In this document: piece after piece, positions 2,726-48,083 of the stretch
Numbering within the stretch: position 1 is the first letter of the stretch
How the letters are laid out: every line of letters starts with the position of its first letter
Source of the DNA: Bacteroidales bacterium
GTDB taxonomy: Bacteria > Bacteroidota > Bacteroidia > Bacteroidales > Tenuifilaceae
Assembly (NCBI GenBank): GCA_020636835.1
Contig: JACJXC010000007.1
Coordinates: forward strand, 281,229 to 345,228
DNA: 64,000 bases
Reading direction: 5' to 3'
Made by a program: the position numbers and the translations under genes
Notes under the pieces: model-generated
What the model was told of the DNA's origin: nothing
Database searches by the model: none
The model's input: the letters and a program-made list of their open reading frames with translations, nothing else

Positions 2726-5134
2726 TTACTCGTACCGCAAGCTCTCCACCGGGTTTCGGTTGGCAATTCGGATGTAATTAACGGCAGCAACAATGGCAAT
2801 GGCAAGTAGTATAACCAAACTACATAGAACAAATAACCACCAGTGCAGCGTTATTTTGCTGGCAAAATTCTGCATCCACTGCACGGCAAAGAACCAAGCG
2901 GCCATCAGCCCAATAATAACAGCAGGGATGGCAATATATTCCAAATCGAGGATGAACATCCGAAGAATATCGCGCATTTCGGCACCATTAATTTGCCGGA
3001 TAGCCAATTCCTTTCGCCTACGGGTTGCCTCGCTGGTTGTGTAGCCCAACAAGCCAATGGCTGTTACCAATAGAATAACGAAATTACCGGCCATCATGGC
3101 ATTCCGGAATCCCCTTTCGGGTCTATAACACTGCTGCTGCTCATCGGCCAAACTACTCACCGAAGCATCCATGAATGGAAGATGCGCGTTAAAAACAGAG
3201 GTAATCCGATCCATAGCACCCGCTCCTACTCCAGGGCGCGCCTTCGCAAGCACATACACCGTAAAGGATGGATACTTAACCTTAAGCTGCTCAAAGCGAC
3301 TATGGGGCAAATAGAAGAAAACAGAGGGTCGGGAATCGGCATTGGTCATCGATCCAACAATAAAATCGGGAAATACGCCCACAATTGGATTAGCGCCACG
3401 GCTATTGTGCTCGGTTATCTCAATTTGCTTTCCTACCACACCATCGGCCCAAAGGTTATTCATCTTAAGCATCTCGGCACACTTGCGACTAATCAGCAAA
3501 TCGTATGGCGAAGATTTTTCGTTCGAGAAATTCGCCCCCTCAACCACTGGAATATTCAGAATGTCAAGGTAATTCTCGTCGATATAGTAAAAATCGGCCA
3601 CATTGAACATCTCCCGCTCCCGATCCTCCGAAAGCACATTATTGCCCGAAGCTCCCTCCATGGGCAAACAGCACCCCAAGCCTACCCTTTCGATCTCGGG
3701 CAGTGATCGTATTTCGTTTAATATCGTAGATATTTTGGTACCATCAACCCCGCTGGTCGATGCAACATATACGCCCTCGGTACTGTAGCCATGATCGGCT
3801 CGCATCATCCTGTTATACTGAAGCACAACTACCACCAACATGGTAATGATGAACGATGCCCCAATAAACTGCATAAAAAGGAGTGCCAACTTCCACTTGT
3901 TGCCTTTTTGACGGTAGGTTCGGAACGCATTTGCCACGGGAATCCGGGAGAAGAAGCGCCCTGGCAAATAGCTAACCAGTAGTACCATCAGCACCATGAT
4001 ACCAAGCAAAGGCCACACCACTTGAGGATTTAATGCCGACGAAAGCCTATGCCCAACCTGCGCCTCGGCAAAAGGCTTTAACGCAAGGATAATAAGGAAA
4101 GCAGCCACCAGCGAAATGAAAAATACCAGAACGGTTTCAGAAAAAATCATACCCTGCAAATTTCTTACCTGAGCTCCGCAGCATTTATGTATAGCCGATG
4201 TTTTTGCTCTATTTACCAGCGCACTAAGCGTTAAAAGAATATAGTTCATCATCGATACAAACAGCACGGCAAAAGCAATAAAACTGAGGATAAGGATCAT
4301 ATCCTTTGCCGCATCCGAATAAAGGCTGGTTATAGGCTCAAAACTGTACTTCAGCACCATTCCGTTGTTGGCCTCCTCCAGCTTAACAATATCCTGATAC
4401 TTCTCCTGCATTTTACGAACGGCAGGGGCTATTTGCTCCGGGGTGTAACCCTTGGCCAGCCGAACACACGCATAGTATCTATCGTTACCCAGCCAATTTT
4501 CGGTTCCATCCCAAAGAAACTCACTAGTAGATACCATGGAGATAAGAATATCGTACTTATAGTTGGTGTTTTCGGGTAAAACCTCGAAAATTCCGGAAAT
4601 AGTTAACTTCTTATTGGGATACTCCTTCAGCTCGATAATTTTTCCGATTACATCGCCCCCCATTTCAACGGCAATTTTGCTCGATACCATACACTGCATG
4701 GGCGATTTAAGAATCGTAAACGGATCGCCACTAATAACAGGGCGAGGAAGAACCCTGAACAGGTTCTCGTCGGCCAGGGAGAAATCGGCCTTGTAATCCT
4801 TCCGATCTTCGGTGTAAAACACCGAAGAACCAATTCCGTTAAGGCGAGTAGCCTCCTCAACGCCTGGCACCTCGGCCTTCAAACCCGGCGCAATGGCACC
4901 GCTAACCCTAGCGTAACTCTCCAGCTTATCCGACGATTTATCCATCTTAAAGTTCTCGTGAACCACGAAAATCCTGTCCGAATCGGGATAAAAACCATCG
5001 AAACTGTAATAGTAAAACACCTCCGATAGTAATAGGATGCTAAACGCCAATCCGGCTGCTAGCGATAAAATTCGGGTAAAAGAATACTCCCCTTTCCGGA
5101 ATAGTCTGCGAAACGCTATTTTTATTGAACCCAT
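2726..5134 (-). CDS. ABC efflux transporter permease, FtsX/MacB-like
   Basis: About 800 aa. N-terminal TM, large periplasmic domain, and C-terminal 4-TM FtsX domain. Lies in an operon with an ABC ATPase, HlyD and TolC genes. Confidence 0.85.
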   Translation of the reverse strand: MGSIKIAFRRLFRKGEYSFTRILSLAAGLAFSILLLSEVFYYYSFDGFYPDSDRIFVVHENFKMDKSSDKLESYARVSGAIAPGLKAEVPGVEEATRLNGIGSSVFYTEDRKDYKADFSLADENLFRVLPRPVISGDPFTILKSPMQCMVSSKIAVEMGGDVIGKIIELKEYPNKKLTISGIFEVLPENTNYKYDILISMVSTSEFLWDGTENWLGNDRYYACVRLAKGYTPEQIAPAVRKMQEKYQDIVKLEEANNGMVLKYSFEPITSLYSDAAKDMILILSFIAFAVLFVSMMNYILLTLSALVNRAKTSAIHKCCGAQVRNLQGMIFSETVLVFFISLVAAFLIILALKPFAEAQVGHRLSSALNPQVVWPLLGIMVLMVLLVSYLPGRFFSRIPVANAFRTYRQKGNKWKLALLFMQFIGASFIITMLVVVVLQYNRMMRADHGYSTEGVYVASTSGVDGTKISTILNEIRSLPEIERVGLGCCLPMEGASGNNVLSEDREREMFNVADFYYIDENYLDILNIPVVEGANFSNEKSSPYDLLISRKCAEMLKMNNLWADGVVGKQIEITEHNSRGANPIVGVFPDFIVGSMTNADSRPSVFFYLPHSRFEQLKVKYPSFTVYVLAKARPGVGAGAMDRITSVFNAHLPFMDASVSSLADEQQQCYRPERGFRNAMMAGNFVILLVTAIGLLGYTTSEATRRRKELAIRQINGAEMRDILRMFILDLEYIAIPAVIIGLMAAWFFAVQWMQNFASKITLHWWLFVLCSLVILLAIAIVAAVNYIRIANRNPVESLRYE

Positions 5135-5181
5135 AATTATTTTGTATTAGTTATTTTTAAGTTTTAAGAACCATTACACAC

Positions 5182-7608
5182 TTACTCGTACCGCAACGCC
5201 TCCACCGGGTTGCGAGAAGCTGCCCGCCAGCTCTGCCAGCTAACCGTAAGCAGGGCAATGAGCAACGCCAGTAAACCCGCAAGCGCAAAAATCCACCAGC
5301 TGAGCGTGGTTTTGTAGGCGAAGTTCTGCAACCACTTTGTCATGGCGTAGTAGGCAATGGGTGTGGCAATAACAAAGGCAACCCCAACCCACTTTACAAA
5401 CGACCTGTTAAGCATAAACATAATCTCGGAGATGTTTGCCCCATTAATTTTTCGGATACCAATCTCCTTAACCCTTTGCTGCATGCTAAACGATGCCATG
5501 GCGTATATCCCCAGCAGCGATATAACAATAGAGATTAGTGCAAACAACGAAACCACACGGGTTTGTGCATACTCGCTAGCATACACCTTTTGGTAGGTAT
5601 TGGTGAGGTAGTCGTACTCCAACGGAAATGAGGGATTAACCCGTTGCCAAGCAGCGCTTACATCGGCTATGGCCTGTTTGCGGTTCTGCGAGTCGATTCG
5701 GACTAGGAATGTGGAGCTAAACATCTTGCGAGGGGCTATAACCAATGGCCTTTCCGCCATATACAGATTGGTGTAATGAAAATCGGGAACAACACCCACA
5801 ATGGTTCCCGGAGGAAACATCTGGGATAGATGAAACTTTAACTGAAATTTCCGACCAATGGCATCCTCAGGATTTGTAATACCCATCATTGCCAATGCGC
5901 TGCGGTTCAGAATATACTGTTCGCTGTAACTACCCACAGTTTCTGTCAACTCCTTGGTTCGGGAATTGTTGGTTGCGCCCATGTTCTGTAGCATACTTAA
6001 CTCTATGGCTGCGGCCTCCCATTGCTGCGAGGGAACGTAGCCCAGTTTTACCGATCCGGCCAATGGTTCAATACCCAGAAAGGGAAAGAAATCGGAATCG
6101 GTGGTTAAAATATTAATCGACTTTTCGGTGCTATTGTCGAACCCCTCCATCTCAAACTGGAAATGATCGAGAATATCGCCGCCAGGCTCCTCCATTGCCG
6201 ACGTAACACCAATTACCGTAGGGCTTTTCACCAACTCTACTTTAAGCGTTTCGTAACGCTGCACAACCTCCTGCTGATTATTTGGAATTACTAATATATC
6301 GGCGTTTGCGGCCTGCGGATGCTGATAGTTTAAGAAATTCATTTGCCTGTTCAGAACAATAGTTCCAACAACTGTAATAATGGCCAGTACAAACTGAACC
6401 ACTAACGGGAAAGTGTATAGCCGAGCATTTGAGCCGATTAATTGCGTGTTACTAACCATTTTTAGGCCAAAAACCGGAATTACAGCAACCAGTAAGACTG
6501 TTAGAATAAAAGATACAGAAAGTAGCGCAATGCTGAACCAATTACCAAACCCGAGCATGGTGAGTCCCAGAGTTTCTGACAAATTCAGGGCAACAAGAAT
6601 TCCAGCCATTACCGAAATCAACGCAATTGCAGCGGCCTCCGTTGCAAACTCAGCGGCTACAGCCCATCGTGATGCACCATTTATCAATTTAACCTTAACC
6701 GTTTTTATGCCAGCAACAAACTGAACCCTGGTTAGGTTAAGGTGGTTCATTAAAGCAATAAAGATGATAATTAAACCACCGCTCAGCAGCAGTATTATGG
6801 AACGAACATTCCCATTTGGCTCAATCTCGCGCGTTTTATGACTAAACAGATGTATATCGGTTAACTTTTGCAGATGAAGCGTGGCAATAGTTGTATTGGG
6901 CTCCTTATCCTCCTCCCACTTTTGCTGAATGGTGCTGCGGAGATGACCCACATCGGTTGCTGGCTTCATCAAATAATAAGTGTAAGCCCATGTTGTGCGA
7001 TCGGGCAATGCGGTGAACGAGGTAAGTATCTCGGCATGAAAGTGAGAGTTTACGGGAAAATCGTCCATAACGCCCTCAATGGTATAGGTGTTGGCATTGG
7101 GATCCTGCTGATGCGAAATGGCTATTTCCTTACCAACCACATCAATCGATCCAAAGTACTTCAGAGCAATGCCCTTTGATATAAATGCCCTGCCAGGCTG
7201 AATAAAAGCCTTTTGTGGATTGCCAGCCAGCACCCTAAAATCGAATAGGCTGAAAAACGAACTATCGGTCGAAAAAGCTTGATTGGAGTAAAAAAACTTA
7301 TCGCCAATCTTAACGATTGCCTTTTTGAACGGAACCAAGCGAACCATGTTTTCAACTGCGGGATACTCGGCCATTAACTCCTTAGTCCAGGTACCAGCCA
7401 CACGCGCAGGATGCATCGATGTTTCGCCATTATTGCTTTCGAGCGTTACCCTATAAATCCTATCGGACTTAGCATGGAATTTATCGTAACTTAGCTCCTG
7501 CCTGGCGAATAAAAAAACCAGAATGGCACACGCAAACGATGCACTCAAACCAATAACGCTGATAATGTGCCATTGGTAGTTTCGCTTGAGATTCCTTAGA
7601 ATTTTCAT
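5182..7608 (-). CDS. ABC efflux transporter permease, FtsX/MacB-like (second paralogue)
   Basis: Same architecture as the neighbouring permease. The C-terminus …NPVEALRYE is shared with the upstream paralogue. Confidence 0.85.
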   Translation of the reverse strand: MKILRNLKRNYQWHIISVIGLSASFACAILVFLFARQELSYDKFHAKSDRIYRVTLESNNGETSMHPARVAGTWTKELMAEYPAVENMVRLVPFKKAIVKIGDKFFYSNQAFSTDSSFFSLFDFRVLAGNPQKAFIQPGRAFISKGIALKYFGSIDVVGKEIAISHQQDPNANTYTIEGVMDDFPVNSHFHAEILTSFTALPDRTTWAYTYYLMKPATDVGHLRSTIQQKWEEDKEPNTTIATLHLQKLTDIHLFSHKTREIEPNGNVRSIILLLSGGLIIIFIALMNHLNLTRVQFVAGIKTVKVKLINGASRWAVAAEFATEAAAIALISVMAGILVALNLSETLGLTMLGFGNWFSIALLSVSFILTVLLVAVIPVFGLKMVSNTQLIGSNARLYTFPLVVQFVLAIITVVGTIVLNRQMNFLNYQHPQAANADILVIPNNQQEVVQRYETLKVELVKSPTVIGVTSAMEEPGGDILDHFQFEMEGFDNSTEKSINILTTDSDFFPFLGIEPLAGSVKLGYVPSQQWEAAAIELSMLQNMGATNNSRTKELTETVGSYSEQYILNRSALAMMGITNPEDAIGRKFQLKFHLSQMFPPGTIVGVVPDFHYTNLYMAERPLVIAPRKMFSSTFLVRIDSQNRKQAIADVSAAWQRVNPSFPLEYDYLTNTYQKVYASEYAQTRVVSLFALISIVISLLGIYAMASFSMQQRVKEIGIRKINGANISEIMFMLNRSFVKWVGVAFVIATPIAYYAMTKWLQNFAYKTTLSWWIFALAGLLALLIALLTVSWQSWRAASRNPVEALRYE

Positions 7609-7712
7609 CCGTACAAAATTTCTAGTGCATTAATAATTAACACGTTACTTCTCCAACCATAATCTTATTGCCGAGCGGATTAAACACACCTAAACCGCAA
7701 CCGTATTGGCTA

Positions 7713-8411
7713 TTAAAAAACCAACTCTCCAACCTGCCTCTTTACCTCCTCGGTAATAACCTGACCATCGAATAGGTTGATTACCCTATGCGCAAAACCG
7801 GCATCGTGCAAGGAGTGTGTAACCATTACAATTGTGGTTCCCTCGCGGTTGAGCTCGGTGAGCAGGTTCATTACCTCTAAACCATTCTTAGAGTCGAGAT
7901 TACCGGTGGGCTCATCGGCAAGAATCAGCTTTGGGTTGGCAACCACGGCACGCGCAATGGCCACACGCTGCTGCTGGCCGCCCGATAGTTGCTGCGGAAA
8001 GTGCTTACGGCGATGGCTGATCTGCATACGTTCAAGCACCTTCTCCACCATTTCGCGGCGGGTACGCGAGTTCATTTTAAGGTAAACCAATGGCAACTCC
8101 ACATTCTCGTAAACATTGAGCTCGTCAATCAGGTTGAAGCTCTGAAATACGAAGCCAATGTTGCCCTTGCGAAGCGCTGTGCGGTTACGCTCCTTCAGGT
8201 TGCCAACCTCCATCCCATCGAAGAAGTAACTTCCACCCGAAGGATTATCGAGCAGGCCAACAATATTAAGCAGGGTTGACTTTCCACAACCCGAAGGTCC
8301 CATAATGGCCACAAACTCGCCTTTTTGTACATGTAAATTCACCTGATTCAACGCGCTGGTTTCAATTTCCTCGGTGCGGAATACTTTTGATAAGTTAACT
8401 GTTTTAATCAT
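7713..8411 (-). CDS. ABC transporter ATP-binding protein (MacB/LolD-type)
   Basis: Walker A GPSGCGKST, signature LSGGQQQRVAIARA, and Walker B ILADEPT. Confidence 0.95.
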   Translation of the reverse strand: MIKTVNLSKVFRTEEIETSALNQVNLHVQKGEFVAIMGPSGCGKSTLLNIVGLLDNPSGGSYFFDGMEVGNLKERNRTALRKGNIGFVFQSFNLIDELNVYENVELPLVYLKMNSRTRREMVEKVLERMQISHRRKHFPQQLSGGQQQRVAIARAVVANPKLILADEPTGNLDSKNGLEVMNLLTELNREGTTIVMVTHSLHDAGFAHRVINLFDGQVITEEVKRQVGELVF

Positions 8412-8439
8412 AATTGTATGTTTTAGATATTAAAGATTA

Positions 8440-9696
8440 CTATTTCAACACAATCCTCTCGCTATCGCCAAAGGTATCGTAGCTGCTTATTATCACCTTC
8501 TCGTTGGGCTGGAGTCCTTCTATAACCTCATAGAACATGGGGTTCTGCTTGCCAATCTTAATTTTTCGCTTCACAGCCTCAGTTCCATCGGCATTGAGCA
8601 CAAAAATCCACTGGCCTCCAGTACTCTGGAAGAATGGTCCACGGGGCACCATTATGGCCTTGGTGGACTCGCCCAGTTCCAACTTTATGTGATAGGTTTG
8701 ACCGGTACGCACGTTATCGGGCATTGCGCCATCGAAAACCAAATCGACCCGGAACTGACCGCTACGAACCTCGGGGTAAACCTTTCGCACCACCATTTTA
8801 TAGTTCTTGTCGTTACGATCCAAAGCCCCAACCAAATCGCGCTTCACCCGATCGATGTAGTGCTCATCGATATTGGCATTTACCTTGAAGTTGGTTAGCA
8901 CGTTGATTTGTCCAATCCGTTGACCCTGCGAGATGGATTGCCCCACCTCGGCATCGAGCATACCCAGCTGACCATCAACCGTTGCCTTTACATTCAGATT
9001 GTCGATACGCTCATGAACCAATTTTAACATCTCGCGCATCTGGTTAAGGTCGCGCTGAAGGGTGTTCATGGATGTAGCACGCATCAGCGAGTCGTTCTTC
9101 GCCTTTACCCGGTTTATCTCGAGCAACTTCTGCTCGTACTCAAAATCCTCCTTCGATTGCAGGAAATCCTCCTTGGCAATCAAACCCTCGTTGTAAAGCG
9201 ATTGGTTCTGCTCAAAACTTCGCTTTTTACGGGTTAAGCGGTACTCGCTGTCCAAAATATTGCGTTTAGATTGAATTAGCTCGGTTTCGAAGCTAATTTG
9301 GGTATTCCGCAGGTAGTTCTCCTTCTCGGCCAACGCCGCCTCGCTATTCAGAATGGTTTGGTATAGCTGGCGATTCTCGAGACGGAGTATCACATCGCCC
9401 TTCTTAACCATTGTGCCCTCCTCAATAAGGCGCTCATCTACTCGCCCACCCTCCTCGGCATCGAGGTAAATTGTGGCAATGGGCTCAACCTGTCCAATAA
9501 CAGTGATGTAATCGTTAAAAAAACCCTCCGTAACAGTTCCAACGGTCAACCTATCGGCTTGCGTCCGAAACGACGATGTGTTATCGCCAAATATCAACTT
9601 TGCCAAAAAGACAATAAAAATCAAAACGCCAACGCCCCAGTAAATATGTTTCCGTTTAATCCCCTTCTTCGGCTCAATAACTCTATCCATGCTCAT
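8440..9696 (-). CDS. HlyD-family efflux periplasmic adaptor subunit
   Basis: N-terminal TM, long coiled-coil region, and beta-barrel C-terminus. Position in operon fits. Confidence 0.85.
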   Translation of the reverse strand: MSMDRVIEPKKGIKRKHIYWGVGVLIFIVFLAKLIFGDNTSSFRTQADRLTVGTVTEGFFNDYITVIGQVEPIATIYLDAEEGGRVDERLIEEGTMVKKGDVILRLENRQLYQTILNSEAALAEKENYLRNTQISFETELIQSKRNILDSEYRLTRKKRSFEQNQSLYNEGLIAKEDFLQSKEDFEYEQKLLEINRVKAKNDSLMRATSMNTLQRDLNQMREMLKLVHERIDNLNVKATVDGQLGMLDAEVGQSISQGQRIGQINVLTNFKVNANIDEHYIDRVKRDLVGALDRNDKNYKMVVRKVYPEVRSGQFRVDLVFDGAMPDNVRTGQTYHIKLELGESTKAIMVPRGPFFQSTGGQWIFVLNADGTEAVKRKIKIGKQNPMFYEVIEGLQPNEKVIISSYDTFGDSERIVLK

Positions 9697-9732
9697 ATAT
9701 ATCAGTATTTTGTGTTTATATTTTAGTGTTTA

Positions 9733-11064
9733 TTAGTTCTCCCAGAATCGTACTCCGCGGTAAAAATCGATGGTGTAGCGTTTCACCTCGAGAGTAAGCC
9801 TTGCCCTAAGCGCCTGCCCCTGAACGGTGCTTAAACGGCTCTTGGCGGTGTAAAAATCGACCACGCTAATCATACCCTTATCGTATTTCTTTTGGGCAGC
9901 ATCAAAGGCGAGCCTGTCGGCAGCCAGCTGCACCTTGGCCTGCCTGTACTCCTTTTCGGCGGCAATGTACTTGTTCACGTTATCGGTGATTTCGAGCTGC
10001 AGATCCTGCTTGGCCTTTTCGAGCAAGTTTTTACTTTGCTCCGATTGCAATTTGGCCTGCTTTACACCAAACCGTGCCGAATTCCTTACAAAAAGAGGCA
10101 CCGAAAGCGACAAGCCCACATACTGGCTCTGGTTATTCCTGAACTGCTCACCAAAAGCGTAAGTTTTACCATCGGCATCCTTGCTGGTTTCGTAGTAGCC
10201 AGTGCTGTACGAGGCTTGCAATTTTAACGATGGATAGTAAGCACCCCGGCTCACACCAATGTTTTTACGGCTTGCCATATACTCATTCTCGTAGTAGTTG
10301 ATTGTGGGCGAAATTTGGGAGTAATCGTGGAACAAGGAATCGCCATCAACTGTATTATCTACTACAATTAAGGAATCACTAGGAATCTCAACATCCAACG
10401 GCGTACTAACGGAGATATTCATAAGTTGCATCAGGGTAATCCTTGCCGATGCCAGCTGGTTCTGGGTTTGAATGTAGTAGAGTTCGTCCTTCTCCATGTT
10501 GGCCTTTACCTCCAGCAAATCCGATTCGGATTTAAGCCCAGTGGTAACCAACACCTCTGTTTTTCGCAGGTTTAACCTCGACAAATCTCGCTGTTCCAGG
10601 GCAATTGTAACCAACTCGTCGAAATAAGCCACATCAAAGTAGGCATTCATCACGGAGAAAGCAATTTCGTCCTCAATTTTACGCTGATTGTGCTCCGCCG
10701 AGATTGCAAGGTATCTCTGGTATGCCAGCTTATTGAGCTGCGAAAAGCCATTGAATAACTCCAACGATGCATTAACGTAGTACGAACTCTCCAAGAATGA
10801 GGTTTTAATAACGCCATTATCGGTGGGATCGACTGAACGGCCAAAGTTCATTCCCGCATTGGAACCAGCATATACACTGGGCAGGTAATTCCACTTCGAC
10901 TGTTTAAAAGAAATATTGGCCACCTCGCTCTGAATTGACGCATTGCGAAGCGTAAGGTTATTGCGAATGCTAAGCTGAATACAGCTATCGAGCGACCACC
11001 GCTCTTGGGCAAAACCACCCAAATGAGTAAAACAGATTAAAACAAGAAGATACTTTCGGCACAT
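9733..11064 (-). CDS. TolC-family outer membrane efflux protein
   Basis: Signal peptide, about 440 aa, with the two-repeat TolC helical/beta pattern. First gene of the efflux operon. Confidence 0.85.
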   Translation of the reverse strand: MCRKYLLVLICFTHLGGFAQERWSLDSCIQLSIRNNLTLRNASIQSEVANISFKQSKWNYLPSVYAGSNAGMNFGRSVDPTDNGVIKTSFLESSYYVNASLELFNGFSQLNKLAYQRYLAISAEHNQRKIEDEIAFSVMNAYFDVAYFDELVTIALEQRDLSRLNLRKTEVLVTTGLKSESDLLEVKANMEKDELYYIQTQNQLASARITLMQLMNISVSTPLDVEIPSDSLIVVDNTVDGDSLFHDYSQISPTINYYENEYMASRKNIGVSRGAYYPSLKLQASYSTGYYETSKDADGKTYAFGEQFRNNQSQYVGLSLSVPLFVRNSARFGVKQAKLQSEQSKNLLEKAKQDLQLEITDNVNKYIAAEKEYRQAKVQLAADRLAFDAAQKKYDKGMISVVDFYTAKSRLSTVQGQALRARLTLEVKRYTIDFYRGVRFWEN

Positions 11065-11092
11065 AATTATTCAACAGTTTAAACAGGCAATG

Positions 11093-11108
11093 CGCCATTC
11101 CCGTGCCA
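11093..11108 (-). promoter_or_regulatory. Candidate sigma-54 (RpoN) promoter, TGGCACG-N4-TGGCG, driving the TolC-HlyD-ABC operon
   Basis: The minus-strand sequence tggcacgggaatggcg matches the -24 GG and -12 GC elements at correct spacing. It lies about 30 nt upstream of the TolC start codon and next to a sigma-54 activator gene. Confidence 0.55.
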
Positions 11109-11156
11109 AAATCATATAGTTCAAAATATCAACAACTTATATTATTAATGTTTTTA

Positions 11157-11200
11157 TCGATGTAAAATAATTGTACATTCCGATGTAAATTATTTTTACA
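11157..11200. promoter_or_regulatory. Candidate enhancer/UAS. Direct repeat CGATGTAAA(A)TAATT x2 containing the inverted half-sites AAAATAATT / AATTATTTT.
   Basis: Repeat structure is visible in the divergent intergenic region, about 50-100 bp upstream of the sigma-54-like promoter. Confidence 0.4.
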
Positions 11201-11233
11201 CCCACTTGAATTCAATAAATTGATAATCTACTT

Positions 11234-12613
11234 TTGACAAAAAAAGTAATGGCAAAAGGGAGCATCCTAATTATTGACGATAATAAGAGCATACTAAGCG
11301 CACTGGAAATTCTGTTAATGCCAGAATTTAAGTCGGTTAATACCATTTCGAACCCCGAACTGATACCCACCGAACTGCGGAAAAACGACTACAACCTAAT
11401 ACTCCTCGACATGAACTTTAAGGCAGGAGTAAACAACGGCAACGAGGGCATATACTGGCTTAGCAGAATTAAGGAAATTGACGCACAAATATCGGTGGTG
11501 ATGATTACTGCATACGGCGACATTGAACTTGCCGTAAAAGCCCTAAAAACAGGGGCAACCGATTTTATCCTAAAACCCTGGGATAACGATAAGCTAATTG
11601 CCACAATAAAGACAGCCATAGAGCTGAACCTTTCGAAAAAAGAGGTAAACAGCCTAAAAGAACACAATCAGGAGTTAAAGAATGAGATAAACCGCGACTC
11701 AAAGTACATTATAGGCTCGTCGGCCAAGCTGATGCAGGTGATGAACATGGTGCGCAAGGTGGCCAAAACCGACGCAAACATCCTTATAACCGGCGAAAAC
11801 GGGACTGGCAAGGAGCTGATTGCCCGCGAAATCCATAGGCTATCGACCCGAGCCAACGAGGTTATGGTAAGTGTTGATATGGGCGCCATTAGCGAAACCC
11901 TCTTCGAGAGCGAACTATTTGGCCACGTAAAAGGCGCTTTTACCGATGCGCGCGAAAATAGACCCGGGAAATTTGAAACGGCCAACCACGGTAGCCTGTT
12001 CCTCGACGAAATAGGAAACCTATCGTACCACCTGCAGGCCAAACTGCTTGCCGTAATACAGAACCGACAGGTTTGCCGGATTGGCTCCAACCAACCAGTT
12101 CCGGTTGATATTCGGCTAATTTGCGCAACAAATAAGAACCTGGAGGCAATGGTTCACGAAGGGCTTTTCCGCGAGGATCTGCTTTACCGAATAAATACAA
12201 TCCAAATAGAGATTCCTCCGCTTCGCGAGCGCGGCGATGACATCCTGGTGCTGGCCGATTTTTTCCTTAAAAAATACTCATCAAAGTACAACAAGCCCAG
12301 CCTACGGCTAAATCAGCAAGCCAACGAAAAACTACTGGGTTACCCTTGGCCTGGAAATATAAGGGAGCTGCAGCACACCATCGAAAAAGCAGTAATCCTA
12401 AGCGAGGGCTCGGTACTTAAAGCCGACTCGTTCTTTATGAAGCCCATTAGCAACCACAAATCCGCAAAAGCCCCACAAACGCTTGAAGATATGGAGCGGC
12501 AGATGATTAATCAGGCTATCGAAAACAGCCAGGGAAACCTTAGTGCTGCAGCCGAACAGCTTGGTGTAACCCGCCAAACACTGTACAATAAAATCAAAAA
12601 AATGGGGCTATGA
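11234..12613 (+). CDS. Sigma-54-dependent Fis-family response regulator (NtrC-like)
   Basis: Receiver domain (…LDMNF…), AAA+ with Walker A GENGTGKE, GAFTDA (a GAFTGA variant), and C-terminal Fis-type HTH. Confidence 0.9.
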   Translation: MTKKVMAKGSILIIDDNKSILSALEILLMPEFKSVNTISNPELIPTELRKNDYNLILLDMNFKAGVNNGNEGIYWLSRIKEIDAQISVVMITAYGDIELAVKALKTGATDFILKPWDNDKLIATIKTAIELNLSKKEVNSLKEHNQELKNEINRDSKYIIGSSAKLMQVMNMVRKVAKTDANILITGENGTGKELIAREIHRLSTRANEVMVSVDMGAISETLFESELFGHVKGAFTDARENRPGKFETANHGSLFLDEIGNLSYHLQAKLLAVIQNRQVCRIGSNQPVPVDIRLICATNKNLEAMVHEGLFREDLLYRINTIQIEIPPLRERGDDILVLADFFLKKYSSKYNKPSLRLNQQANEKLLGYPWPGNIRELQHTIEKAVILSEGSVLKADSFFMKPISNHKSAKAPQTLEDMERQMINQAIENSQGNLSAAAEQLGVTRQTLYNKIKKMGL

Positions 12614-13944
12614 TTAGCAAAAACCTATACCTGAATTTGATAGCCCGCGTTGTAATTGTTGCTATAACGGCAACGGGCTTTGGCTTTACGCTCGCACAAA
12701 GCAACACATACACACTCCCCTTTGTATTGCTAGTCGCGCTGATTGTGGCGGCCATAAACCTTATTTGGTATATCAACTCAACCAACCGTAAGCTTAACCT
12801 ATTCTTTGAAGCGATAAAAAACAACGACTCAGCATTAATATTTCAGGCCGACTCGAGCAATAAAACCCTAAAAAACTTATCCTCTAGACTGAACCAGGTA
12901 AACAGGCAAATTCAGCAACTTAAAATAGACAATCAGCAAAAGGAGCAATATTTCCGAACGCTACTCGAGAATGTGGCCACCGGAATAATCACCTTCAACT
13001 CAAAAGGATTTGTGCTACACGCCAACTCCGCGGCAAAACGAATGCTTCAGCTCGAAGTGCTCACCCATATAAAGCAAATGGAGAAGGTCGATTCCAAACT
13101 ATTCCAAACCGTGCAGCACATAAAGCCTAACGAACGCAAGCTGGTATCGCTCCCCTGCGAACGCGGGGTTACAGAGCTGTCCTTGAATGCAACGCCATTC
13201 AAAACCACTACCGAAGAGATGATTCTTTTATCGATACAGGACATCAAGAATGAGCTGGATGCCAAGGAGTTGGATTCGTGGCTAAAACTAATCCGAGTTC
13301 TGATGCACGAAATTATGAACACAATAGCCCCAATAACCTCACTATCCGAGAGCTTATCGAAACACGTTGCCCAGGAAAGAGTAGCAAGCGCCAACACAAA
13401 ATCAACAGAAATTGTGAGCAAAGGGCTTGAAGTTATTCGGACGCAAAGTGTAGGCTTGATGCAATTTGTAGAGTTGTACCGCAAACTTACCCGATTGCCC
13501 AAACCCGATAAAAAATATCTAAATGCTGCCAATTTGCTAAACCAAATAAAGTTGCTATTCGAGTCGGATTGCAAGAATGGAGCCCGCATTGAGGTTACGG
13601 CAGCACCCGAAACCCTGGAGGTTTATGCCGATGAAGGCTTAATATCGCAGGTTTTAATCAACCTGGTAAAAAACGCAATTCAGGCCAACGAGGGTAATCC
13701 CAAGGCAAAGATTTCTGTAATCGCAAAAAGTAAAGATAATAGGGTAGAGATTGATGTTGTTGATAATGGCCCCGGCATTCCAAAGGAGATCATCGATGAG
13801 ATATTTGTACCCTTCTTCACTACACACGAAAACGGGTCGGGTATCGGGCTAAGCATATCGAGGCAGATTGTACGCCTGCACGGAGGAACGCTAAAAGTAA
13901 AATCGATACCTAACTCCGAAACGGCATTCAGTTTCAGTATATAA
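12610..13944 (+). CDS. Sensor histidine kinase, cognate to the NtrC-like regulator
   Basis: Two TMs, H-box LMHEIMNTIAPI, and ATPase motifs (DNGPGIP, GSGIGLSI). Its start overlaps the upstream stop (ATGA). Confidence 0.9.
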   Translation: MISKNLYLNLIARVVIVAITATGFGFTLAQSNTYTLPFVLLVALIVAAINLIWYINSTNRKLNLFFEAIKNNDSALIFQADSSNKTLKNLSSRLNQVNRQIQQLKIDNQQKEQYFRTLLENVATGIITFNSKGFVLHANSAAKRMLQLEVLTHIKQMEKVDSKLFQTVQHIKPNERKLVSLPCERGVTELSLNATPFKTTTEEMILLSIQDIKNELDAKELDSWLKLIRVLMHEIMNTIAPITSLSESLSKHVAQERVASANTKSTEIVSKGLEVIRTQSVGLMQFVELYRKLTRLPKPDKKYLNAANLLNQIKLLFESDCKNGARIEVTAAPETLEVYADEGLISQVLINLVKNAIQANEGNPKAKISVIAKSKDNRVEIDVVDNGPGIPKEIIDEIFVPFFTTHENGSGIGLSISRQIVRLHGGTLKVKSIPNSETAFSFSI

Positions 13945-14042
13945 AAAGCCTCCCCCGAACAAAATGTCTATGCAATAATATTCATACCCAAGAACCAAGT
14001 AAACGAAAAAAGGTAGCCATCAGGCTACCTTTATATTATTTG

Positions 14043-14972
14043 CTACCACACATTAACGTCGTAATCGGGGACTTTGCGAACATTTTTGGCCACATCCTGC
14101 CCCTTCTCGTTTTTAGTAATAATAAACTCCACCATGTCGCCTTCCATCAACTCATCGAATTCGCCCTCAAGCACATCGATATAGTGGAAAAAGAGGTTGT
14201 TGGGCGGATACTGAATAAAACCGTATCCACTATTCACTTTAAGGATTCGGGACTGCTTAACCTCGTCGTCCGATGGCTCCTCGGCAGGAGCCTCCTGACG
14301 CTGCTGAGCAAAATCCTGCACTGTAAAAAGATTGACAGTGGACCTATCGTTATTTTTCAAACCAGAATTAATCAACTCGTGCATGGCAATGGGGTATGTA
14401 ACCTCGCGGAGCAACTCCTGCGAAGTACGGGTGGTAACATCGCGCCCCTGATCGTCGGTATAATCAAAATCCCACGACAATACCATAACCTTAGTCCCCA
14501 ACGAATTAACCTTACGAATAAGCGGAACATAATCGCCATCGGAGGTAATTAGTACCAACACATTGAACCGTTTATAGAAGGTTTGCTCAAAGGCCTCCAG
14601 AGCTAACCACACATCAATCCCCTTATCCTCGCGTCGTCCACCCCTTGGGCGAATAGGCAGATAATGCGTTACAACACCCTCCGACATCAAAATATCGTCA
14701 AATACCCTATCGTTATAAAGTTGATTACCGCGCTGGCTAGCTTCCTGCGCACTGATTCGCCCCCTAAAAAAATGGGCTTCAATCACCTGGCAATGCTCCG
14801 GACTGGTATCCTCCTCGCTTGCCACCAAATTCCTAATAAACTCGTGTAACCCCGCAATATTTAAGCGCTTCTTCCTAGGGTGAAAATAGTTATAATAGTT
14901 GCTTACATGTAAAAAATAGTTACCATCGTAAAAAACTCCAACACGTATCAACTCTTTCTTGCTGTTCTTCAT
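14043..14972 (-). CDS. NYN (LabA-like PIN nuclease) domain protein with a C-terminal cold-shock/S1-like domain
   Basis: NYN core …VLVLITSDGDYVPLI…, and a C-terminal GYGFI…FFHY…V segment resembling a cold-shock domain. Confidence 0.7.
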   Translation of the reverse strand: MKNSKKELIRVGVFYDGNYFLHVSNYYNYFHPRKKRLNIAGLHEFIRNLVASEEDTSPEHCQVIEAHFFRGRISAQEASQRGNQLYNDRVFDDILMSEGVVTHYLPIRPRGGRREDKGIDVWLALEAFEQTFYKRFNVLVLITSDGDYVPLIRKVNSLGTKVMVLSWDFDYTDDQGRDVTTRTSQELLREVTYPIAMHELINSGLKNNDRSTVNLFTVQDFAQQRQEAPAEEPSDDEVKQSRILKVNSGYGFIQYPPNNLFFHYIDVLEGEFDELMEGDMVEFIITKNEKGQDVAKNVRKVPDYDVNVW

Positions 14973-46988: not shown

Positions 46989-48083
46989 TTATAGCCACTC
47001 TAAAAGTTCCCTTGCTATAACCTCCGAGGCCTTACCTTCTCCATACAAATCAATGCCAAAATCCGATTCTTTTGAGACCATTGCTTTATATGAGCCGTAG
47101 AGTTTCTCGGAGGAGGAGCCACAAAGAGCGTTGAATCCATTCTCAACCAACTCCACCCACTCTGTTTGCTCGCGCATGGTTACGCAATGTTTCTTAAAGA
47201 AAAATGCCTCTTTTTGCACACCCCCGCTATCGGTAACCACCAAGGAGCAGTTATTGAGCAGCGATATCATATCGAAATACCCTACGGGATCGATAATCAT
47301 AAATTCCGGGGATAGTTTATGACTGGCGAGTATTTTCCTGGTCCGAGGATGTAGTGGAACAACCACTGAAATTTCCTTATTGATTCGGTTAAGCCCATCG
47401 ATAATACCCTTTAGATTATCGATATTATCGGTGTTTTCCTGACGGTGAATGGTTGCCAAAACAAACCGCTCGGGAATTGAATGCTCGGCTATTACTGTGG
47501 ATATTCTACGCGCCTTTTCGATATAGAAGTACGCCGCATCTTGCATTACATCGCCATTTTTAACAATTTTGGATTGGAAGTTATCAAAACCTTCGGATTT
47601 AAGATTTCTGATGGCCGCATCGGTTGGGCAGAACAACAAATCGGAAATCCTATCGGTTAGGATCCGGTTTATCTCCTCGGGCATATCCATGTTGAATGAT
47701 CGTAATCCGGCCTCGACATGCACCACACGGATGTGCAACTTCTTTGCCACCAAGGCTCCGGCTAACGTGGAGTTTGTGTCGCCGTAAACCATTACAGCGG
47801 ATGGCTTCTCATCAACCATAATCTTCTCCAATGCCTCCATCATTCGGCCAGTCATTGCTCCATGACCTAAACTATTGATCTCAAGATTATAGGTTGGTTT
47901 GGGAATCTCCATTTCGCGGAAAAACACATCGGACATGTTATCGTCGAAATGCTGACCGGTGTGGACAATCAACTCGGAAATTCCGTGCTTGCTAAGCTGA
48001 CGGCTCACCGCCGCCGCTTTAATGAATTGAGGACGTGCCCCAACAACTGTAAGTATTTTAGCCATAAAATTATACTTGCTCAA
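46989..48083 (-). CDS. wecB: UDP-N-acetylglucosamine 2-epimerase (non-hydrolysing)
   Basis: N-terminus KILTVVGARPQFIKAA, with conserved epimerase motifs throughout. Confidence 0.9.
   Translation of the reverse strand: MSKYNFMAKILTVVGARPQFIKAAAVSRQLSKHGISELIVHTGQHFDDNMSDVFFREMEIPKPTYNLEINSLGHGAMTGRMMEALEKIMVDEKPSAVMVYGDTNSTLAGALVAKKLHIRVVHVEAGLRSFNMDMPEEINRILTDRISDLLFCPTDAAIRNLKSEGFDNFQSKIVKNGDVMQDAAYFYIEKARRISTVIAEHSIPERFVLATIHRQENTDNIDNLKGIIDGLNRINKEISVVVPLHPRTRKILASHKLSPEFMIIDPVGYFDMISLLNNCSLVVTDSGGVQKEAFFFKKHCVTMREQTEWVELVENGFNALCGSSSEKLYGSYKAMVSKESDFGIDLYGEGKASEVIARELLEWL

Follow-up and report, generated by a model that had tools for sequence, protein, structure and literature searches.

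A probable sigma-54 enhancer-promoter cassette between a two-component regulator pair and a MacB/FtsX-type efflux operon in a Bacteroidales genome

The described systems closest to the locus analysed here are NtrB-NtrC with its target promoter glnAp2 in enteric bacteria and ZraS-ZraR with zraP in Escherichia coli and Salmonella. The locus itself is a 182-bp intergenic gap separating an efflux-pump operon from a divergent two-component regulator pair in a stretch of 64,000 nucleotides (nt) of Bacteroidales bacterium DNA (Tenuifilaceae; GenBank GCA_020636835.1, contig JACJXC010000007.1, positions 281,229–345,228; this whole stretch is called the window, and all positions refer to it), and it is likely to be an enhancer-dependent sigma-54 control cassette for the efflux operon. 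As in NtrB-NtrC/glnAp2, a histidine kinase is paired with a regulator made of receiver, AAA+ and helix-turn-helix domains (REC-AAA+-HTH_8), and tandem 17-bp dyads are found ~100 bp upstream of a −24/−12 promoter; NtrC sites have a 6-5-6 geometry and the frame TG...CA, as do the palindromes here. The present locus differs from NtrBC in having an efflux target rather than nitrogen assimilation, sites 23 bp apart instead of ~32 bp, a GAFTDA loop and a membrane-anchored kinase. It resembles ZraS-ZraR in the target lying divergent from the two-component operon, in (putative) activator sites within the shared intergenic region and in an envelope-related function, but the regulator operon has a sigma-A-type promoter where that of ZraSR is sigma-54-dependent, and a tripartite ABC efflux pump takes the place of the periplasmic chaperone as the target. 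NCBIfam scores of the regulator stay below the cut-off for every named group, PrsR (403.5 bits; cut-off 502.6), AtoC (384.5; 714), NtrC (345; 559) and ZraR (338; 760); it is therefore not an NtrC orthologue and falls in an unnamed subfamily.

On the transporter side, BceRS-BceAB of Bacillus and MacRS-MacABCsm of Stenotrophomonas offer a similar arrangement, a two-component system beside an FtsX-type ABC transporter that it is thought to control. The kinase encoded here presumably shares the build of BceS-type intramembrane sensors, two membrane helices with almost no external loop. The Bce and MacRS regulators are of the OmpR type and act at sigma-70 promoters, whereas here an AAA+ activator would act at a sigma-54 promoter. 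The pump is comparable to MacAB-TolC in combining an OEP protein, an HlyD-type adaptor, an ABC ATPase and a permease with the MacB periplasmic core and FtsX domains, and Pfam matches (OEP, HlyD-type, ABC_tran, MacB_PCD plus FtsX) show that all four components of a MacB-type tripartite pump are encoded. Unlike in MacAB-TolC, the ATPase is a separate polypeptide and there are two duplicated ADOP/DarB-like permeases of ~800 amino acids (aa). The NCBIfam MacB equivalog cut-off of 966 bits is far from reached by the permease (25.7 bits) or the ATPase (216.7 bits), and the MacA match (33.9 bits; cut-off 342) also falls short, so that orthology to E. coli MacB and to MacA is not indicated. The pump proteins are nearest to darobactin-export/ADOP-type systems, with ADOP/DarB-, DarC- and DarD-like NCBIfam matches all below their cut-offs.

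To our knowledge, few studies have dealt with sigma-54 regulation in Bacteroidota, and for most activators of this phylum no target or binding site is known. Sigma-54 does occur and function in other Bacteroidota, and typical −24/−12 promoters work in the phylum, as reporter mutagenesis in Flavobacterium psychrophilum showed (PMC9723704). FtsX permeases of COG0577 were found to be enriched, on statistical grounds, among the sigma-54 targets predicted for Bacteroidia, which was called the first evidence there (PLoS One 2025, PMC12316311). A literature search for an experimentally characterised sigma-54/MacB-TolC or NtrC/FtsX system in Bacteroides, or for a defined enhancer, returned only this 2025 computational survey, and the main text of Francke et al. 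2011 mentions neither Bacteroidetes nor efflux. The survey concerns the same class and the same link, predicted sigma-54 promoters ahead of genes for FtsX-family permeases, but consists of COG-level statistics and does not specify an activator, an enhancer motif, a fixed cassette or a locus, whereas here the two-component system, the palindromes, their spacing and the TolC/HlyD/ATPase partners can be defined. The link between sigma-54 and FtsX was thus already known at COG level; what would be new is the assignment of activator, site, promoter and target to one another, and a probable multi-permease regulon. The locus brings together an activator subfamily, a likely 17-bp site, a strictly spaced enhancer-promoter cassette and a coherent set of MacB/FtsX-type efflux targets, turning the statistical hint of 2025 into a concrete, testable regulon. 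It does not challenge current understanding and would be a fairly ordinary regulatory switch, of use for annotation and for the choice of an experimental system.

The elements of the predicted cassette are the following.

11093–11108, minus strand: sigma-54-type core promoter TGGCACGGGAATGGCG, with −24 GG at 11107–11106 and −13/−12 GC at 11095–11094.
11109–11160, minus strand: A+T-rich spacer, mostly unconserved apart from one box.
~11131–11115, minus strand: moderately conserved spacer box, in the window TGATATTTTG-N4-ATA, 8–23 nt upstream of TGGCA (0.3–0.9 bits).
11161–11177, both strands: putative proximal enhancer palindrome, plus strand TGTAAAATAATTGTACA, minus strand TGTACAATTATTTTACA, centre ~−87 from the predicted start.
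11184–11200, both strands: putative distal enhancer palindrome, plus strand TGTAAATTATTTTTACA, minus strand TGTAAAAATAATTTACA, centre ~−110.

The evidence that carries this assignment is comparative. A search with the regulator protein gave 80 loci from Prolixibacteraceae and other Marinilabiliales (66–88% identity), and 65 non-redundant regions from these were anchored, ungapped, on TGGCA for footprinting. Information content across the 65 regions is 1.6–2.6 bits at TGGCA, 2.4 bits at a G exactly 13 nt after its T (the −13 G) and 0.8–1.4 bits at the palindrome half-sites, and falls to ~0 bits in the spacer between −55 and −30; TGGCA and the −13 G are near-invariant over the orthologous loci, the spacer is unconserved, and the same columns are invariant in a MAFFT alignment of eight diverse loci (A1). 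In the window the first base of the proximal palindrome is 69 nt, and that of the distal one 92 nt, from the T of TGGCA, and in nearly every one of the 80 loci the palindromes start at these same distances (±2 nt). The spacing is kept at regulator-gene distances of 180 as well as 800 bp, including loci in which the cassette lies 300–600 bp from the regulator, and where the intergenic region has grown to 400–800 bp the three elements stay together, adjoining either the regulator gene or tolC. Strict 69/92-nt spacing is what face-of-helix constraints on a short DNA loop predict. TGGCAY-N7-G follows a strict palindrome by 66–96 nt in 65 of the 80 loci, with 75 co-occurrences against ~0.9 expected (1.38 Mb scanned), and two loci (L051 and L058) have two complete cassettes each. 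The cassette points toward efflux genes throughout: a divergent TolC-HlyD-ABC operon lies beside the regulator in ~60 of the 80 loci, the others begin with HlyD or the ATPase, and in nine loci where efflux genes seemed to be missing, the cassette is followed by a gene for a ~790-aa FtsX-type permease, so that the first gene is always TolC, HlyD, ABC ATPase or FtsX permease. The initial annotation had proposed that the adjacent NtrC-like two-component system directly activates the TolC-HlyD-MacB operon, and had left open whether the repeat upstream of it recurs elsewhere. The repeat is conserved upstream of the orthologous operons, at fixed 69/92-nt spacing in most of the 80 loci, and the proposed activation gains support from the comparative evidence.

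Within the window, the core promoter lies in the minus-strand context ...GATTT TGGCACGGGAATGGCG CATTGCC...AATAATT ATG. It has GG-N10-GC spacing, and the GC doublet is 30 nt before the ATG of the tolC-like gene at 11064; a GG/GC element with canonical spacing, ~30 nt upstream of the tolC-like start, had been noted here before, with correct coordinates and sequence. By the standard −12 convention, transcription is predicted to start near 11082, giving a leader of ~18 nt. A pattern derived from the orthologues, TGGCAY-N5-TNGY, matches once in the 64 kb, at the promoter site, with 1.8 matches expected in the whole window. Across 69 cassettes the −13 G is invariant and the −14 base, canonically T, is G in 53, which makes the local consensus TGGCAY-N5-TGGCA rather than TTGCA; the window site, TGGCACG-N4-TGGCG, agrees with it, and the canonical TGGCATTGCGTTTGCA occurs in one relative (L060). 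The conserved downstream promoter base of this clade is accordingly the −13 G and not the −12 C. Some relatives read TGGCAT-N5-TGGCAC, and the second TGGCAC was considered as the −24 element but rejected, the downstream GC being 11 nt away and not conserved.

The upstream sites form a direct repeat with 23-nt spacing on the plus strand, 11158–11177 (CGATGTAAAATAATTGTACA) and 11181–11200 (CGATGTAAATTATTTTTACA), each containing one of the 17-bp palindromes, which are likewise 23 bp apart; a direct/inverted repeat described earlier at 11157–11200 resolves into these two units. Both palindromes fit TGTMAA-N5-TTKACA, the distal one as the sole perfect match in the window and the proximal one as one of four matches with one mismatch; the resulting five matches with ≤1 mismatch compare with an expectation of 0.92, and so many were not attained in any of 100 shuffles. 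The consensus in relatives is TGTaAA-N5-TTtACA. With centres at ~−87 and ~−110, the pair falls in the range of about 80–150 bp upstream of the promoter in which at least two dyad sites are taken to mark the enhancer of a bacterial enhancer-binding protein (bEBP). The spacer box between palindromes and promoter has the approximate consensus CTGATWWTYAG-N4-TTA, and many relatives match the IHF-type pattern WATCAR-N4-TTR; at positions −8/−7 from TGGCA, T is found in 63 and A in 48 of 69 cassettes. The box possibly has a role in DNA bending by an IHF/HU-like protein. An Rfam scan of 10900–11400 at E≤1 returned no RNA family, so the conservation is not explained by a riboswitch or leader RNA.

A DNA-only pattern of the whole cassette, validated on the orthologous loci, was scanned against metagenome contigs and matched at least 120 of them, with at least 123 further cassettes among the matches listed; in all, the cassette is conserved in at least ~190 related sequences. 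The first open reading frame (ORF) downstream of the 123 listed cassettes encodes an FtsX/MacB-type permease (69), a TolC-like protein (29), an HlyD-like protein (2), a small secreted protein (3) or another product (4, two of which resemble FtsX N-termini), and in 16 cases no ORF was called (contig end or none found). Hence 100 of the 107 listed cassettes with a readable downstream ORF precede MacB/FtsX permease, TolC or HlyD genes, which makes the cassette a specific hallmark of this family of efflux genes. In 81 of the 110 evaluable cassettes among the matches listed, the regulator gene is found in divergent orientation no more than 900 nt away, and the 29 without it suggest a multi-gene regulon. 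Twenty-one of 27 regulator-less cassettes examined in detail precede stand-alone FtsX permease genes, whose products have 22–41% identity to the window permease. The regulator thus probably controls more than one transcription unit, amounting to a small efflux regulon.

Stand-alone ~800-aa permease genes sometimes form tandem arrays with one cassette per gene (metagenome loci L082–L198, e.g. L085, L090, L106, L128 and L193). Several relatives have an additional sigma-54-type promoter, accompanied by one or two copies of the palindrome, ahead of a gene for a small protein (79–187 aa). The protein carries a signal peptide and E-x-W-M-[IVMT]-[ND] repeats, and its C-terminus often has the motif FW[GN]F. 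These small secreted proteins match no Pfam family, and the window has no such gene. They were located at the following positions, and also in metagenome loci L086, L165 and L175.

L002: ~6700–7236, minus strand.
L004: ~7650–8103, minus strand.
L013: ~7650–8104, minus strand.
L030: ~4860–5422, minus strand.
L051: 3450–3861, minus strand.
L058: 3600–3862, minus strand.
L056: 3290–3778, minus strand.

A more speculative picture, to which only a low probability is given, is that the cassette marks a dedicated Marinilabiliales sigma-54 regulon, in which one intramembrane-sensing two-component system would switch a shared TolC/HlyD/ATPase core, scattered paralogous ~800-aa FtsX permeases, each with its own rigid cassette, and in some species the small E-x-W-M secreted protein. 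Such a system would allow modular, permease-swapping detoxification or export, and, in the manner of Bce-type systems, might sense transport activity via the pump, though with an AAA+ activator and sigma-54 in the output path.

For the locus in the window, the proposed sequence of events begins with the membrane-anchored PAS kinase, which has almost no external loop and would sense a signal, probably related to the envelope or to pump substrates, and phosphorylate the adjacent NtrC-type regulator. Regulator dimers would then bind the two TGTMAA-N5-TTKACA palindromes at ~−87 and ~−110 and assemble an active AAA+ ring, and the short A+T-rich spacer would bend, possibly with the help of an IHF/HU-like protein bound to the conserved box. 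The GAFTDA loops of the ring could thereby contact sigma-54 RNA polymerase held in a closed complex on TGGCAC-N5-TGGC, with ATP hydrolysis opening the promoter. The five-gene operon (tolC-like, hlyD-like, ABC ATPase and two FtsX permeases) would be transcribed from ~11082, and the regulator-kinase operon separately, from a Bacteroidetes sigma-A promoter.

The genes concerned are as follows.

2726–11064, minus strand: target operon of five genes (ORFs and Pfam).
9733–11064, minus strand: TolC-like outer-membrane protein (OEP/TolC family, 443 aa; ORF list and Pfam OEP), ATG at 11064.
8440–9696, minus strand: HlyD-type adaptor (Pfam HlyD_3/HlyD_D23).
7713–8411, minus strand: ABC ATPase, a separate polypeptide (Pfam ABC_tran).
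5182–7608, minus strand: MacB_PCD/FtsX permease, ~800 aa, duplicated form (Pfam).
2726–5134, minus strand: second MacB_PCD/FtsX permease, ~800 aa, duplicated form (Pfam).
11249–12613, plus strand: NtrC-family response regulator/sigma-54 activator (receiver, AAA+ and Fis-type helix-turn-helix domains), ATG at 11249.
12610–13944, plus strand: cognate histidine kinase (Pfam HATPase_c, 3.8e-25, and PAS).

The three domains of a bEBP are all present in the regulator (Pfam Sigma54_activat, 6.8e-68; Response_reg, 6.1e-20; HTH_8, 4.4e-15; plus AAA_lid_14), together with a Walker A motif GENGTGKE and, as the predicted sigma-54 contact loop, GAFTDA in place of the canonical GAFTGA. Its closest solved structures are Aquifex NtrC4/NtrC1 and ZraR (1ojl, 2.7e-79), with FleQ and VpsR also among the solved relatives. 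Domains and translations bear out the earlier identification of the divergent genes as a sigma-54-dependent activator with a GAFTDA variant and its kinase. The kinase gene overlaps the stop codon of the regulator gene at its start, and the N-terminus that it encodes (12610–12790, plus strand) consists of two hydrophobic helices joined by a loop of ~5 residues (..LAQSNTYTLP..), followed by PAS and the kinase core, a topology read by eye from the sequence. By this reading the kinase has an intramembrane-sensor layout with no periplasmic domain, which suggests that sensing takes place within the membrane, in the cytoplasm via PAS, or through the transporter.

Several observations weigh against an enhancer-dependent sigma-54 promoter served by the adjacent regulator. 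The −12 element reads TGGC (TGGCG here) and not TTGC/TTGCW, TGGCACGGGAATGGCG departing from TGGCAC-N5-TTGCW at two of 11 specified positions (−14, G for T; −11, G for W), and with up to two mismatches this consensus is matched 23 times in the window, fewer than the 32 times expected from shuffled sequence. Over the 69 cassettes the −12 C often gives way to another base (C 44, T 21, A 4), and a search of the ORFs in the 64-kb window for an RpoN box found none. Binding of the regulator to the palindromes is proposed from their co-localisation and geometry, and for the 29 listed cassettes that have enough upstream sequence but no regulator gene nearby, the acting activator is not proven. A bare consensus match, not being enriched, was rejected as evidence on its own, so that the comparative evidence decides. 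By the same token, the lack of enrichment is what would favour reading the motifs as functionless chance matches in an A+T-rich intergenic region, but with sequence and spacing kept over at least ~190 independent cassettes while the spacer varies, this explanation is refuted for practical purposes.

More serious, though still improbable, is that a genuine sigma-54 promoter is accompanied by palindromes that serve another protein as operators, or that the promoter is activated by a different enhancer-binding protein, the main targets of the adjacent regulator lying elsewhere. The metagenome cassettes with no regulator gene within reach could be read in this way, and several sigma-54 activators are usual in Bacteroidota genomes, with three in F. 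psychrophilum (PMC9723704). However, the cassette adjoins, and is divergent to, a gene of the regulator orthogroup in 65 of the 80 genome loci as well as in the 81 evaluable metagenome cassettes among the matches listed, and the island of efflux and two-component genes in the window encodes no other regulator. Moreover, a 17-bp 6-5-6 dyad is the site geometry of NtrC/ZraR-type proteins, and tandem sites 80–110 bp upstream are the classic enhancer layout.

Two further explanations would dispense with sigma-54 altogether, and both are given very little weight. A sigma-A or extracytoplasmic-function (ECF)-type polymerase might transcribe the operon, with TTTGGCA...G serving as an operator or as part of a promoter, e.g. 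with TTTG as the Bacteroidetes −33 element. This consensus TTTG is indeed embedded in the conserved TTTGGCA, TAnnTTTG overlaps TTTGGCA in five relatives, and the −12 C is poorly conserved. Set against these points, a TAnnTTTG −7 box at the right distance downstream is absent from the window and not consistent in relatives, conservation peaks on GGCA and on a G exactly 11 nt farther on, a pattern not accounted for by a sigma-A promoter, and an intact sigma-54 activator is encoded alongside. Equally doubtful is that the G-to-D change in GAFTGA has left the regulator, though bEBP-like, unable to work with sigma-54, and that it instead represses or activates a sigma-70-type promoter, an ability known from FleQ, VpsR and Rhodobacter NtrC; the GAFTDA loop and the presence of FleQ and VpsR among the solved relatives would fit. 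The loop is GAFTDA in 72 of the 80 orthologues, GSFTDA in seven and GAYTDA in one, so that D is invariant, F (or the conservative Y) and T are kept in all 80, and the −24/−12-type element is conserved at a fixed distance from the predicted binding sites. GAFTDA is also listed among the loop variants expected to maintain activation, and a regulator carrying it, DVU2106, has assigned targets (Kazakov et al., PMC4641369). Control by sigma-54 and the adjacent regulator remains the preferred account of the cassette.

A promoter of a different kind was found for the regulator operon.

11206–11236, plus strand: Bacteroidetes sigma-A-type promoter, −33 TTG at 11206–11208 and −7 box TACTTTTG at 11229–11236.

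The consensus used, TAnnTTTG with an upstream TTG, is taken from the Bacteroides/Flavobacterium promoter literature. TACTTTTG, on the plus strand, is the only TAnnTTTG in the intergenic region, has TTG 20 nt upstream and ends 12 nt before the ATG at 11249, close enough for the regulator-kinase mRNA to have a very short leader or none. Of 68 relatives, 56 have a TAnnTTT[GA] box, in 46 cases preceded by TTG at exactly 20 nt, and the box ends 8–10 nt before the ATG in most. The −33 element is 6 nt from the distal palindrome, and occupancy of the latter could therefore influence the regulator promoter, making autoregulation possible. On the efflux strand of the window intergenic region there is no TAnnTTTG, and among the 68 relatives it occurs on that strand in nine, five of which are those with the overlap of TTTGGCA; the sequences thus contain no competing conserved Bacteroidetes sigma-A promoter for the efflux operon. 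The TTTG of TTTGGCA was rejected as a sigma-A −33 element, no −7 box following it. A scan for E. coli-type sigma-70 promoters and terminators gave four weak matches and no terminator, such a scan being uninformative for a Bacteroidetes genome.

Elsewhere in the 64-kb window, neither a second cassette nor a second sigma-54 activator was found. The window's best match to the canonical sigma-54 consensus, with one mismatch, is TGGCAAAGAAGTTGCA (47734–47749, minus strand); it lies inside an ORF (46989–48083, minus strand) and is probably a chance match. The genes flanking the locus are of unrelated housekeeping types, a SpoU methylase on one side and an NYN plus cold-shock-domain protein (14043–14972, minus strand) on the other, so that the seven genes form a self-contained island, in which Pfam and the survey of flanking genes revealed no further regulator gene. 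Between the convergent kinase and NYN plus cold-shock-domain genes, at ~14005–14030, a G+C-rich hairpin is followed by a T-run (AGGTAGCCTGATGGCTACCTTTTTT on the minus strand), and is probably a terminator, possibly a bidirectional one.

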